From IMG/VR virus record IMGVR_UViG_3300006982_000001, positions 1 to 64,000 of that record: 64,000 bases of DNA; one strand, 5' to 3'. Below, in pieces: positions 37,293 through 52,225 of this stretch. Numbering within the stretch: position 1 is the stretch's first letter; each line of letters opens with the position of its first letter. The position numbers and the translations under genes are program-made. Origin of the DNA: a virus. A model generated the notes under the pieces. The model saw only the letters and a list, made by a program, of their open reading frames with translations, had not been told where the DNA came from and made no database searches.

Positions 37293-37366
37293 ACGTGGGT
37301 AGTGTAGTGGTATCACGCCGGACCTTTGCCTGTCCGGCAACGGTGGTTCGAATCCACCCCCGCGTA
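37293..37366 (+). tRNA. Orphan tRNA-like gene, Gln(UUG)-like, with 8-nt anticodon loop CUUUGCCU
   Basis: Acceptor acgtggg/cccgcgt (A1-U72), T-arm ggtgg-ttcgaat-ccacc, anticodon stem ccggac/gtccgg enclosing 8 nt. Confidence 0.6.
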
Positions 37367-38997: not shown

Positions 38998-39159
38998 CCC
39001 CCACCTCGTTAGTGGGTAGTAGAACGATGCTGACACGGACACTCACTCGGGGCAGGTTCGGCCCGATAGTTGGGTGTCCAATTAGAGTCCATCCTCAGGG
39101 ATGGCCTCAACACCTCTTTTAGATCCGCTGAAAAGGCGGGTCTGTTCGCTTCACATCGC

Positions 39160-39245
39160 TCCGGCGTAGCATAGTCAGGGGCACATCGCCATAATGCACC
39201 TCCCTCGTAAGGAGGAGAACGGGGGTTCGATTCCCTCCGCCGGAT
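39160..39245 (+). tRNA. tRNA-Thr: tRNA-Thr(CGT) with 21-nt D-loop
   Basis: Acceptor tccggcg/cgccgga; anticodon arm cctcc-ctCGTaa-ggagg; T-arm ggggg-ttcgatt-ccctc; D-stem gcat/atgc encloses 21 nt. Confidence 0.7.
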
Positions 39246-39250
39246 TTCTT

Positions 39251-39324
39251 GGGATCGTAGTGTAGTGGTCTATCACCCCTCGTTTGGGACGAGGAGATCG
39301 CTGGTTCGAATCCAGCCGATCCCA
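39251..39324 (+). tRNA. tRNA-Pro: tRNA-Pro(TGG)
   Basis: gggatcg/cgatccc; cctcg-ttTGGga-cgagg; gctgg-ttcgaat-ccagc. Confidence 0.9.
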
Positions 39325-39328
39325 CTCT

Positions 39329-39401
39329 GCGCGTGGTTGATCCAACGGCAAGACAGGGGCCTTCCAAGCCTCAGATCCCGGTTCGATTCCGGGGCCGCGC
39401 A
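39329..39401 (+). tRNA. tRNA-Gly: tRNA-Gly(TCC)
   Basis: ggggc-ctTCCaa-gcctc; cccgg-ttcgatt-ccggg; acceptor base has mismatches, ends +/-1. Confidence 0.75.
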
Positions 39402-39405
39402 TCGC

Positions 39406-39481
39406 ACTCCCGGAGTCCCCGCTGGCGAGGGACGCTGGACTTTGGATCCAGAGATCGCCGGTTCGATTCCGGCCGGGAGGA
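39406..39481 (+). tRNA. tRNA-Gln: tRNA-Gln(TTG)
   Basis: ctgga-ctTTGga-tccag; gccgg-ttcgatt-ccggc; A1 opposite G72. Confidence 0.8.
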
Positions 39482-39484
39482 TGA

Positions 39485-39559
39485 ACGGGGGTAGCGCAGT
39501 CCGGTCGACGCACTCGGCCGATAACCGAGGTGAGGCAGGTTCGAATCCTGTCCCCCGTA
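39485..39559 (+). tRNA. tRNA-Ile: tRNA-Ile(GAT), C at position 33
   Basis: acggggg/cccccgt; ctcgg-ccGATaa-ccgag; gcagg-ttcgaat-cctgt. Confidence 0.8.
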
Positions 39560-39562
39560 TGA

Positions 39563-39635
39563 TGGTGCGTAGATCAGCTGGTAGATCGTCCCGCTCACAT
39601 CGGGGAGGTCGCAGGTTCGAGTCCTGCCGTACCAA
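39563..39635 (+). tRNA. tRNA-Val: tRNA-Val(CAC)
   Basis: tggtgcg/cgtacca; tcccg-ctCACat-cgggg; gcagg-ttcgagt-cctgc. Confidence 0.9.
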
Positions 39636-39637
39636 TT

Positions 39638-39710
39638 GGGGACGTGGTGTAGCCCGCTATCACACGCGCCTCCAGAGCGCGAGAGAGGGGTTCAAATCCC
39701 TTCGTCCCCA
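39638..39710 (+). tRNA. tRNA-Trp: tRNA-Trp(CCA), intron-less
   Basis: ggggacg/cgtcccc; cgcgc-ctCCAga-gcgcg. Confidence 0.9.
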
Positions 39711-39714
39711 TACG

Positions 39715-39789
39715 GGGCACATAAGCTCAGCTGGACAGAGCACCCGGCTTCTAACCGGGATGTCGGCCGTTCAAATCGGTCTGTGCCCA
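39715..39789 (+). tRNA. tRNA-Arg: tRNA-Arg(TCT)
   Basis: gggcaca/tgtgccc; cccgg-ctTCTaa-ccggg; ggccg-ttcaaat-cggtc. Confidence 0.9.
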
Positions 39790-39795
39790 TCGAGA

Positions 39796-39868
39796 GCCCA
39801 CGTAGCTCAGTGAACAGAGCACCGGTCTTCGAAATTGGGTGTCGCAGGTTTGAATCCTGTCGTGGGCG
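39796..39868 (+). tRNA. tRNA-Arg: tRNA-Arg(TCG)
   Basis: gcccacg/cgtgggc; ccggt-ctTCGaa-attgg; gcagg-tttgaat-cctgt. Confidence 0.85.
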
Positions 39869-39871
39869 TAG

Positions 39872-39944
39872 GTCGAGGTGGCAGAGTGGTGAACGCACCC
39901 GCCTGCAGAGCGGGAAAACGTCGGTTCGATTCCGACCCTCGACT
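39872..39944 (+). tRNA. tRNA-Cys: tRNA-Cys(GCA)
   Basis: gtcgagg/cctcgac; cccgc-ctGCAga-gcggg; gtcgg-ttcgatt-ccgac. Confidence 0.9.
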
Positions 39945-39948
39945 CTCT

Positions 39949-40022
39949 GGGACGGTAGCTCAGCTCGGGAGAGCGCGGCGCTGAAGACGTCGTCTGCCTC
40001 GGTTCAAATCCGAGCCGTCCCA
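39949..40022 (+). tRNA. tRNA-Phe: tRNA-Phe(GAA)
   Basis: gggacgg/ccgtccc; cggcg-ctGAAga-cgtcg; ctcgg-ttcaaat-ccgag. Confidence 0.9.
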
Positions 40023-40024
40023 CT

Positions 40025-40099
40025 GCCGGGATGGTCTAATACAGAAAGATTGGAGGCTTGTGATGCCTCAGACGCGGGTGCTAAGTCCCGCTCCCGGCC
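40025..40099 (+). tRNA. tRNA-His: tRNA-His(GTG) with non-canonical D and T loops
   Basis: gccggga/tcccggc; gaggc-ttGTGat-gcctc; D-loop aatacagaa (no GG); T-loop tgctaagt (8 nt, no TTC); AT-rich. Confidence 0.7.
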
Positions 40100-40129
40100 C
40101 TTATCTATCTGGAGATCGTAGAGCGGACG

Positions 40130-40519
40130 ATGGCTCACCAAGATTTGTTCCACTATCAGGCCCGCATCGAGCGGATCGTAGACGGTGATACATACGACGT
40201 CGTGATCGACATCGGTTTCAAGCTCTCGAAAGAGATCAGGATCCGTCTGAACGACGTCAACACCGCCGAGACCTACGGAGTCAAGAAGGAATCCGAGGAG
40301 TACCAGAATGGGATCGCTCACAAGACCTTCGTCGAGGAGTGGCTCCACAAAGCACAAGCCGACTCCGAGCACGAGTTCCCCGTTCTGATGCGGACTCACA
40401 AGCACGAGAAGGGGAAGTATGGTCGCTACGTGGCCGACGTGGTCCGCCGATCCGATGGCGCTGTCCTCTCCGAGGATCTGCTCGAGGAGTTCGACACGGT
40501 CGAGAAGGTGGACTACTGA
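40130..40519 (+). CDS. Staphylococcal-nuclease (SNase/thermonuclease)-like nuclease
   Basis: RIVDGDTYDVVID...IRIRLNDVNTAETYG...GKYGRYVADV. Confidence 0.75.
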   Translation: MAHQDLFHYQARIERIVDGDTYDVVIDIGFKLSKEIRIRLNDVNTAETYGVKKESEEYQNGIAHKTFVEEWLHKAQADSEHEFPVLMRTHKHEKGKYGRYVADVVRRSDGAVLSEDLLEEFDTVEKVDY

Positions 40520-40529
40520 CCCGCAGACC

Positions 40530-40541
40530 CATAGATTTATA
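40530..40541 (+). promoter_or_regulatory. BRE/TATA promoter of tRNA operon 2
   Basis: CATAGATTTATA; 37 nt before tRNA-Asp. Confidence 0.65.
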
Positions 40542-40572
40542 TTCATCGGTGCTATACGGCAAGACGCGATGA

Positions 40573-40645
40573 GCCGAGCTGGTGTAGTCAGGAAACATCG
40601 TGCCCTGTCACGGCGCGGCCGCGAGTTCAAATCTCGCGCTCGGCG
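40573..40645 (+). tRNA. tRNA-Asp: tRNA-Asp(GTC)
   Basis: gccgagc/gctcggc; gtgcc-ctGTCac-ggcgc; gcgag-ttcaaat-ctcgc. Confidence 0.9.
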
Positions 40646-40648
40646 TGC

Positions 40649-40723
40649 AGCGGGATGGGATAGCCAGATCACTCCGCCGGGTTCATATCCCGGAGAACGC
40701 AGGTTCAAATCCTGCTCCCGCTA
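40649..40723 (+). tRNA. tRNA-iMet: tRNA-Met(CAT), initiator-type
   Basis: A1-U72 (agcggga/tcccgct); anticodon stem ccGGG-ttCATat-CCCgg with three G-C pairs next to loop. Confidence 0.8.
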
Positions 40724-40870
40724 TGCGCCTCTCCGGCGCTCACTAAGTAGGAGTTCGGTTCCAACCACCGGGCAGGTGGCTGTCACACGCTCCTGACCCG
40801 ACCCCCGAATCCCATAACGAGGATAGAAAACGCTCGCAAGGTCCGGACGCTCCCGGACTACAATCCTCGC
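40724..40870 (+). other. 147-nt tRNA-free, hairpin-rich spacer inside tRNA operon 2 (candidate ncRNA or decayed tRNA)
   Basis: gcgcc-tctcc-ggcgc; ccacc-gggca-ggtgg; cgaggat...gtccgg-acgctc-ccggac...atcctcg. Confidence 0.3.
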
Positions 40871-40944
40871 GGGCTCGTAGTTCAGCTCGGTAGAACCCCC
40901 GCTTCGCAAGTGGGAGGCCGCCGGTTCAAGTCCGGCCGAGTCCA
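40871..40944 (+). tRNA. tRNA-Ala: tRNA-Ala(CGC)
   Basis: gggctcg/cgagtcc with G3-U70; cccgc-ttCGCaa-gtggg; gccgg-ttcaagt-ccggc. Confidence 0.9.
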
Positions 40945-40955
40945 TCGCTCATCGC

Positions 40956-41034
40956 GGGCAGGTAGCAAAGGCGATGCGCAGCCTGCACCGGGCCTTTAAC
41001 CCGGCTATCGTGGGTTCAATTCCCACCCTGCCCT
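40956..41034 (+). tRNA. tRNA-Lys: tRNA-Lys(TTT), enlarged D-loop, C33
   Basis: gggcagg/cctgccc; ccggg-ccTTTaa-cccgg; gtggg-ttcaatt-cccac; 79 nt. Confidence 0.7.
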
Positions 41035-41042
41035 CTCAGCGA

Positions 41043-41129
41043 GCTCCCGTGGGGTAGCGGACACACGCTCTCAGGCAATCCTACCGGCCTTTCGAGCCGG
41101 TGACGTCGGTTCGACTCCGACCGGGAGCA
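41043..41129 (+). tRNA. tRNA-Glu: tRNA-Glu(TTC) with 22-nt D-loop
   Basis: gctcccg/cgggagc; ccggc-ctTTCga-gccgg; gtcgg-ttcgact-ccgac; D-stem gggt/atcc encloses 22 nt; 87 nt. Confidence 0.7.
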
Positions 41130-41978: not shown

Positions 41979-42080
41979 GCGGGCGTGGCAGAGCTTGGCC
42001 GAACGCGTCTGGCTTAAGACCAGATGAGTGTAGGCTCAACGGGGCAACCCATTACGTAGGTTCGAATCCTACCGCCCGCA
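41979..42080 (+). tRNA. tRNA-Leu: tRNA-Leu(TAA), 102 nt with ~31-nt variable region
   Basis: gcgggcg/cgcccgc; tctgg-ctTAAga-ccaga; gtagg-ttcgaat-cctac; variable region includes ggg-gcaa-ccc hairpin. Confidence 0.65.
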
Positions 42081-50721: not shown

Positions 50722-50758
50722 TCCTATACCGTTCTACGGGTAGATGGAGCTCAGAAAG

Positions 50759-52225
50759 ATGTACGAACGATCCATCGACGAATTCGGCGACCAGATAGAG
50801 TGGCTCGAAAACGAGAGCAGTCGGAACGACAAGAAAGCACAGATCGCACAGATCGCTCAGGAATCCCTCTGGCGACACAAGTTCGAGATCCTCGCGGGTC
50901 AGCGGTTCGACGACATCGGCATCGCCAAGAAGACGGCGATCAAGTCCGTCGCCCGCGCCTACGGGAAGCACGACGGAGACGTCGAGTCTGACGTCGCTGA
51001 GATCGGCTCTGTGACGGAGGCAGTCCGGGAGTACGGTGACACGTCGTCCTCCACCTCGGATCACCTAGACGAGCTATACACGGCCTTAGAGAGCCTCGAG
51101 GATCTTCGGGGCGACAAGCAGATCGCAGAGTTCAGCTCGATGCTGCAGAAGTTCGCGAGTCCGTGGGTCGTGACGTTCGCTGTCGTGGGAGACCTCTCGA
51201 TCGGTGTCAGTCACAGCACGATCTGCTCTGGAGTGGGCGAGTCGTTCGGCTACACCAAAGACGAGATCCAACGTGGACGCGCGCTTATCCCGAACACGGC
51301 GGAGTTCGTCGAGGCCGTCAAGAACGACCGAGTGATCGACAGCCCGACCGCCGGAGAAGCCTTCGCTCCGATGAAGGCGAAGTCCATCAGTGAGCCGGAC
51401 GATCTGGACGAGTGGGTCGCTCAGATCAAGCTCGATGGCTACCGGTGTATGATCCACATCGAGGAGGACGGGACGGCACGAGCGTTCAGCTCAGCTCTGA
51501 ACGAGCAGACGGAGAAGCTCCCGGAGCTGGCCGACATCAATTGGCCGGACGGTGAGTGGATCTTCGACGCCGAAGTGATGGCCGCAGACGACTCCTACGA
51601 GTCCACGTCAGAACGTATGCAGCGGAAGGGCAGCTCTGAGCTGCCACACACGATGAACTTCTGGGTGTTCGACGTCCTCGTCGCAGACGGAGAAGACGTC
51701 AGCAGAGAACCGTTCACCGACCGGATGGACACCGTGATCGCCAAAGCCCCGATGGACGAGCGAGTGATCCCGGTCTTCGCTCACGACGACATCGACGAGG
51801 CTCGAGAGGACGCGCTTGACAACGGGTACGAGGGCACGATCCTCAAGCACAAAGACCACGAATTCGAGTTCGGGAAGCGGTCCAAGAATTGGATCAAGGA
51901 CAAGATCACGACGGACACCGCCGACCTGCGAGTCTCCGGGTTCATTCAGGGCGAGGGACGTCACTCGGATCGGCTCGGGGCGATCACGCTGGAGACGGAG
52001 GACGGGGTCGATCTGGGAAAGGTCGGAACCGGGTTCACCGACCGGAAGCGCAAACAGATCTGGGACAACCGGGACGATTGGGACAACGCGATTGTCGAGA
52101 TCAAGTTCGACGCGGACGACGGGTACGAGGATGGACTCCGGTTCCCTGCCTTCGTCACGCGCCGGGACGACAAGCTCGCAGCGAACGACGAGCAGCGGAT
52201 TCGGAATATCGCAGGTGGTAACTGA
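50759..52225 (+). CDS. lig: ATP-dependent DNA ligase
   Basis: Motif I KLDGYR, EGTILKH, WIKDK; ATGGAGCTCAGAAAG leader. Confidence 0.85.
   Translation: MYERSIDEFGDQIEWLENESSRNDKKAQIAQIAQESLWRHKFEILAGQRFDDIGIAKKTAIKSVARAYGKHDGDVESDVAEIGSVTEAVREYGDTSSSTSDHLDELYTALESLEDLRGDKQIAEFSSMLQKFASPWVVTFAVVGDLSIGVSHSTICSGVGESFGYTKDEIQRGRALIPNTAEFVEAVKNDRVIDSPTAGEAFAPMKAKSISEPDDLDEWVAQIKLDGYRCMIHIEEDGTARAFSSALNEQTEKLPELADINWPDGEWIFDAEVMAADDSYESTSERMQRKGSSELPHTMNFWVFDVLVADGEDVSREPFTDRMDTVIAKAPMDERVIPVFAHDDIDEAREDALDNGYEGTILKHKDHEFEFGKRSKNWIKDKITTDTADLRVSGFIQGEGRHSDRLGAITLETEDGVDLGKVGTGFTDRKRKQIWDNRDDWDNAIVEIKFDADDGYEDGLRFPAFVTRRDDKLAANDEQRIRNIAGGN

Follow-up and report, generated by a model that had tools for sequence, protein, structure and literature searches.

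The length of the dihydrouridine loop (D-loop) is among the most constrained features of cytoplasmic-type transfer RNAs (tRNAs). Reportedly, Marck and Grosjean described in 2003 non-canonical archaeal tRNA introns that have the motif called bulge-helix-bulge (BHB), located at D-loop positions in Thermoproteales and others. The subject of this analysis is three tRNA genes, Thr(CGU), Lys(UUU) and Glu(UUC), which carry 5-13 surplus bases in their D-loops and are found in the first 64 kb (hereafter, the window) of the IMG/VR virus record IMGVR_UViG_3300006982_000001.

The BHB motif consists of a 4-bp helix with a 3-nucleotide (nt) bulge 3' of each strand and is cut after the second base of the bulge. 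Archaeal introns do occur in D-loops, and relaxed forms of the motif are cut only by endonucleases of the (alpha-beta)2 and epsilon2 types (PMC6379350). In bacteria, AriB of the PARIS system makes contact with U16-U17, its targets include the tRNAs for Lys(UUU) and Thr, and the tRNAs of phage T5 differ in the D-loop (PMC12409363, PMC12475279). The archaeal virus HGTV-1, which is cultured on Halogranum roseipondis, prefers the codon GAA, and the matching viral tRNA has been counted in its usable set; tRNAscan-SE detects one intron only in this virus, in a gene other than Glu (PMC13532342).

Three tRNAs with long D-loops

The union of calls by ARAGORN and by the Rfam RF00005 covariance model (CM; gathering threshold 29 bits) gives 25 tRNA genes at 37.3-42.1 kb, and the genome has none elsewhere. 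The three genes in question match the model over its full length (model positions 1-71) with scores of 56.7 bits for Thr, 52.4 bits for Lys and 53.3 bits for Glu, which are mid-range for the cluster (39-66 bits). In CM alignments, the surplus bases of all three fall between the two strands of the D-stem, giving D-loops of 21 nt in Thr, 14 nt in Lys and 23 nt in Glu. An earlier, sequence-only reading of this DNA had placed extra nucleotides inside the D-loop of these tRNAs, and the alignments agree with it: the covariance model did not shift the extra bases to another arm. For comparison, the tRNAs of the window cluster and of three other viral clusters, HGTV-1 among them, were used. The remaining 22 tRNAs of the window have D-loops of 7-11 nt, the range previously quoted as usual, and the same range is found in 34 of the 35 ARAGORN-called tRNAs of HGTV-1 and in all tRNAs of the two other viral clusters. 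Three long D-loops among 25 tRNAs are, therefore, well beyond what normal variation would give.

All three tRNAs have intact acceptor, anticodon and T arms, although position 33 of Lys is C. ARAGORN misses Thr, miscalls Lys as Val and reports Glu as '???', which is expected because loops of such length lie beyond its modelling. Thr, Lys and Glu have no second gene among the 25, and without these three the set would not cover all 20 amino acids. The three genes are separated from the adjoining tRNAs of the array by 5-11 nt.

The tRNA-Thr(CGU) gene (39160..39245, + strand, 86 nt) has canonical arms except for the D-loop. Its D-stem is GCAU/AUGC, exactly as read earlier, and the cloverleaf is kept in the minimum free energy (MFE) fold. 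By CM alignment and direct reading, the D-loop (39173..39193, + strand) consists of AGUCAGG (A14 to G18G19), GGC-ACAUC-GCC and AUA. The 11-nt surplus segment (39180..39190, + strand) is located after G18G19 and can form a 3-bp hairpin with a 5-nt loop; a stem of equal size is found in 95% of shuffles. U8, A14, the R15-Y48 pair (G15/C48), G18G19, A21, U33 and T54-A58 are all present by direct reading in Thr as well as in Glu. With both strands counted, the sequence CACATCGC occurs only twice in the window, at 39152-39159 directly before the Thr gene and at 39182-39189 in its D-loop.

The tRNA-Lys(UUU) gene (40956..41034, + strand, 79 nt) was assigned by its Rfam score and alignment. The 14-nt D-loop, AGGCGAUGCGCAGC (40969..40982, + strand), corresponds in the CM alignment to the D-stem GCAA/CUGC with an A13.C22 mismatch. 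The 3-bp stem with a 16-nt loop, which the sequence-only reading had considered necessary, is only one option. In the MFE fold, an extended, bulged 6-bp D-stem (GCA-AA-GGC/GCC-UGC) closes an 8-nt loop, and Lys may fold in this way. The anticodon loop (40987-40993) is CCUUUAA. The D-loops of Thr (39184-39190) and Lys (40970-40976) are perfectly complementary over 7 nt (CAUCGCC/GGCGAUG; shuffle p = 0.006, uncorrected). This complementarity could reflect a kissing contact or chance, or one segment may be a copy of the other in inverted orientation.

The Glu(UUC) gene and its homologue in HGTV-1

In the tRNA-Glu(UUC) gene (41043..41129, + strand, 87 nt), the CM alignment gives the D-stem GGGU/UCCU with a U13.U22 mismatch in place of the gggt/atcc proposed before. 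With this register A26 remains, and the variable loop is 4 nt long. The D-loop (41056..41078, + strand) consists of AGCGG (A14 G15 C16 G18 G19), an ACACAC linker, the hairpin GCU-CUCA-GGC and AA. The covariance model fits AGCGG to the consensus A..GG and places an 18-nt insert after it. The 3-bp hairpin (41067..41076, + strand) was recognized by direct comparison of this loop with that of HGTV-1.

The HGTV-1 gene M199_gt003 (NC_021328.1, 52081-52168; L164:7455-7542), 88 nt long, was deposited as 'tRNA Ala (agc)'. Its anticodon loop reads CUUUCGA, and the gene is therefore a tRNA-Glu(UUC), with a D-loop of 24 nt, an assignment that is new here. The Rfam score is 47.7 bits. The D-arm is GGGU AGUGGACGCACGGCAUUAAGCCAA UCCU, and the loop is organized as AGUGG-ACGCAC-GGC-AUUAA-GCC-AA, with the hairpin GGC-AUUAA-GCC in the place of GCU-CUCA-GGC of the window. 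An HNH endonuclease gene is located directly after this gene.

In both Glu genes the covariance model fits AGYGG to A14...G18G19 and places the 18-19-nt insert next, where tRNAs vary between G19 and A21. The stretch that runs from U8 to the G behind the linker is identical at 16 of 18 positions, and both differences are transitions, although most of the acceptor, anticodon and T stem sequence differs. The two loops share the layout AGYGG-ACRCAC-(3-bp hairpin)-AA. The segment after the linker is variable: the window has GCUCUCAGGC at this place and HGTV-1 has GGCAUUAAGCC. In each virus the three bases at its start pair with the three at its end while the letters differ, an arrangement with a chance of about 0.05 per sequence, and two of the three pairs are changed on both sides. 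Of the origins that had been suggested for the extra nucleotides, a lineage-specific expansion is supported for Glu by this homologous D-loop. The mini-hairpins ascribed to the three loops have weaker support. The stems can form, but within single loops they are no commoner than in shuffled sequences, and the AGCG/CGCU stem proposed for Glu consumes A14, G15 and G18 and is not kept in the HGTV-1 homologue.

Glu D-arm patterns, searched against 2.9 million viral contigs of IMG/VR, retrieved HGTV-1 only, together with one chance match in a coding region. The specific Glu D-arm gave four chance matches and none in a tRNA among 185,579 prokaryote genomes; in both searches the pattern is narrow and other expanded D-loops could escape it. 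Exact-pattern scans of IMG/VR with the 3' halves of Thr and Glu gave no match, nor did a search with a long-D-loop Thr pattern. A search anchored on the protein of the DUF6744 gene upstream found no relatives, and a search with the nuclease-like (SNase) gene of the tRNA array found relatives of at most 49% identity, none of which carries these tRNAs. BLAST of the tRNAs against GenBank phages yielded nothing useful. Two relatives identified by their terminase, L002 and L003, have a different tRNA set of normal length, including a 75-nt Glu(UUC). A candidate repeated DNA element, GGCACATCGCC, was rejected with 30 matches at up to 2 mismatches against 22 expected.

The host and the possibility of introns

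The whole IMG/VR record is 104,118 bp long and has direct terminal repeats. Its large terminase shares 52-54% identity with the terminases of three siphoviruses of haloarchaea, HVTV-1, HCTV-5 and HCTV-1, and its G+C content is about 59%. The tRNA-His lacks an encoded G-1, and CCA ends are encoded in none of the tRNAs. Judging from the terminase similarity, the G+C content and these two tRNA features, the host is a haloarchaeon. The cultured relatives have 0-2 tRNAs each; those of HVTV-1, HCTV-1, HCTV-5 and two IMG/VR relatives, also 0-2 in number, are normal.

Because the host is a haloarchaeon, the idea of archaeal introns deserved a proper test. The sequence-only reading had listed non-canonical mini-introns among its suggestions. 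On this view, the surplus would be short introns excised by the host EndA, with the exons rejoined by RtcB, as for the D-loop introns of Thermoproteales and red algae. The archaeal host, the known occurrence of archaeal introns in D-loops (PMC6379350) and the presence of an anticodon-loop intron in one HGTV-1 tRNA are all consistent with this. BHB motifs were scanned for in every register with the intron inside the D-loop, and G-U pairs were allowed. Thr and Lys have no fully paired 4-bp helix with 3-nt bulges in any register, and each candidate requires a mismatch. Glu has one formal hBHBh' (GGGG/CUCU) with two G-U pairs and 2-bp flanking helices, which would speak for splicing, but hits as good as this one occur at the chance level of about one per ordinary tRNA of the cluster. 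Moreover, the CUCU strand is missing from the HGTV-1 homologue, and excision at this motif would leave a non-viable 6-nt loop, AGGCAA, without the 15-17 region. Haloarchaeal EndA is of the strict alpha'2 type, which differs from the two endonuclease types that cut relaxed motifs, and the haloarchaeal clade is not known for relaxed-motif enzymes. The viral genome was found to have no tRNA_int_endo (EndA), RtcB or Rnl2-type RNA ligase; the single PF09414 match (50744-52225) is an ATP-dependent DNA ligase. Taken together, these results make short introns a very unlikely explanation of the long loops.

Probable retention of the surplus in working tRNAs

The favoured explanation, to which we give somewhat better than an even chance, is that these are working tRNAs of a haloarchaeal tailed virus, in which the variable part of the D-loop has expanded and the surplus is retained. 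The surplus is probably kept in the finished tRNA, because it is not intron-like and because the Glu form recurs in the unrelated HGTV-1. The genes are argued to be functional because they are the sole genes for their amino acids, their stems are intact, and Thr and Glu keep the bases of the tertiary contacts. The published analysis of HGTV-1 argues in the same direction, through the GAA preference, the inclusion of the matching viral tRNA in the usable set and the location of the only intron elsewhere (PMC13532342). Codon usage of the window virus gave no signal (GAG 81%, AAG 80%, ACG 55%).

The alternative of three tRNA copies that are inactive or in decay, in which long loops are tolerated damage without a role (for example, repair scars in a cluster rich in homing endonucleases), draws on the oddities of Lys, which combines C33 with the lack of A21 and of a clear G18G19. 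HNH genes and an orphan tRNA end are found within the same cluster, the re-annotation of HGTV-1 contains three putative pseudogenes, and the 8-nt repeat CACATCGC, confined to the site just before the Thr gene and to its D-loop, could be read as a scar. A repeat of this kind, however, is not significant, as an 8-mer is repeated within 300 nt in 38% of random segments. A templated repair scar was rejected as a candidate, the nearby 8- and 9-mers being within the control distribution. Decay is also difficult to reconcile with intact stems, mid-range scores and the conservation of the Glu loop in two unrelated viruses whose tRNA stems have changed, and it would strike the sole genes for three amino acids, although the rest of the set leaves no other amino acid of the 20 uncovered. 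Decay is thus regarded as unlikely.

In retained expansions, the position of the surplus would be a permissive one. In Thr and Glu it is located after G18G19 and before A21, in the 'beta' or 20a-20b variable stretch. In the L-shaped fold, bases at 20a-20b would point into solvent beside the elbow, and a small stem-loop at this site could protrude without disturbing the D-stem or the U8-A14, G15-C48 and G18/G19-T-loop contacts. The same kind of oddity is present at another permissive site, the variable arm of tRNA-Leu(UAA) (41979..42080, + strand, 102 nt; Rfam 50.8 bits), where about 17 surplus nt are predicted to fold into a second small hairpin; its CM alignment has a 28-nt insertion in the variable region. 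In the 86-nt tRNA-Met(CAU) of HGTV-1 (L164:9430-9515), the variable region likewise contains a hairpin, GUGC-UUC-GCAC, and the gene has a C1.A72 mismatch.

If the surplus is functional, its likeliest effect would be to alter how the tRNA is seen by proteins that read the D-loop, such as host tRNA-cleaving defence nucleases or modification enzymes, while decoding is kept. By analogy with T5, the arm may change recognition by such host proteins, and escape from tRNA-targeting host factors, also among the earlier suggestions, is plausible on this analogy only. The thiolated-U34 trio of tRNAs, a classic nuclease target, includes Lys(UUU) and Glu(UUC) and hence two of the three tRNAs considered here, although this was noticed post hoc. 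A more specific proposal can be offered as tentative: in haloarchaeal viruses, a protruding D-loop mini-arm would be retained as a shield against host defence nucleases or D-loop modification enzymes, or as a handle for a viral factor, with decoding preserved. On this proposal, viruses would have invented the Glu(UUC) form long ago and shared it horizontally, so that at least two virus families have it.

A role mainly outside translation, in which the tRNA-shaped RNAs serve as decoys for a host tRNA nuclease or as handles for a hairpin-binding viral protein, would fit the conservation of the Glu loop in sequence beyond length (AGYGGACRCACG), the SNase-like nuclease gene within the cluster and the 7-nt complementarity of the Thr and Lys loops (p = 0.006). 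Competition for AriB by phage tRNAs, when these are overexpressed, has been suggested (PMC12409363). The anticodon loops, acceptor stems and discriminator positions of Thr and Glu nevertheless look fully translational, the genes are needed for the complete 20-amino-acid set, and no partner protein was identified. This role is considered very unlikely.

Several points weigh against retained expansions in working tRNAs. Retention is deduced from the lack of a splice motif. The hairpins of single loops are at chance level, since a stem of at least 3 bp is present in 55-95% of shuffled loops and the MFE p values are 0.14-0.30. The comparative support consists of one second sequence and concerns Glu only; relatives carrying the Thr or Lys gene were not found in the pattern and protein searches described above. 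The register of the window Glu is uncertain, because an alternative GG (in CAGGCAA) would shift the insert to before G18. Among the three, Lys departs furthest from the canon and may be impaired: U33 is nearly universal in tRNA anticodon loops, whereas Lys has C33, and it lacks A21 and a clear G18G19.

Other features of the cluster

The main cluster is preceded, 1.8 kb upstream, by a tRNA at 37293-37366 (Rfam 55.7 bits) whose anticodon loop, CUUUGCCU, is 8 nt long. ARAGORN gives it the 4-base anticodon ttgc, and it is a candidate either for a Gln-like UUG tRNA with an extra base or for a quadruplet reader. The SNase-like nuclease gene (40130-40519) is located in the middle of the tRNA array and matches Pfam SNase with 18.8 bits, which is under the cut-off. 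A 98%-identical variant of its protein, P0001, exists, and homologues of 44% identity (L082/L083:4001-4306) are likewise found within 26-tRNA arrays of viral contigs of 230-460 kb.

An intergenic element is common to the tRNA clusters of two related viruses (window 40822-40866; L002:262-307). It consists of TAGAAAANGCNNGCAAG, a 6-bp hairpin and CTACAAYCC. The hairpin covaries fully (GTCCGG/CCGGAC versus GTGCAT/ATGCAC), and the element has no match in Rfam. A second block, GTGGCTGTCACACGC, is also common to both viruses (window 40768-40790; L002, about 316-330). Between intact tRNAs of the related virus there is a tRNA-like remnant (L002:346-415) with a score of 28.8 bits, just below the Rfam threshold, which resembles the orphan tRNA 3' half adjoining an HNH gene in the window.

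Significance and comparison with known systems

No larger D-loops would be known than these of 21-24 nt, provided that they are due to neither introns nor damage, and they would reveal a place at which the tRNA core can accept an additional arm. Should this arm protect the viral tRNAs, tRNA-based counter-immunity, an idea developed for bacteria, would apply to archaea too and would have a structural solution of a new kind. Standard finders miss or misname such genes, as shown by the failure of ARAGORN on all three and by the deposition of HGTV-1 Glu(UUC) as Ala(agc), and both viral tRNA inventories and codon-matching analyses are affected.

The archaeal non-canonical BHB introns resemble the inserts of the window in being a short D-loop surplus of similar length (11-20 nt). 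The window inserts differ from them in having no bulge-helix-bulge geometry, and the conserved part of the Glu insert is unpaired with exon sequence. The T5 tRNAs that resist PARIS AriB and retron Ec78 are similar to the window tRNAs in that they, too, are viral and depart from the tRNAs of the host at or near the D-loop (PMC12409363, PMC12475279). In T5, however, the differences are point substitutions in a bacterial phage with demonstrated resistance, whereas the window tRNAs have 5-13 extra bases, belong to an archaeal virus and are at most candidates for resistance. The closest counterpart is M199_gt003 of HGTV-1, which has the same GGGU/UCCU D-stem, a long D-loop of the same layout and the insert after G18G19. 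Unlike the virus of the window, HGTV-1 is a myovirus of another family (Halomagnusviridae) with a host of another genus (Halogranum), and its Thr and Lys genes, in contrast to those described here, are of normal length.

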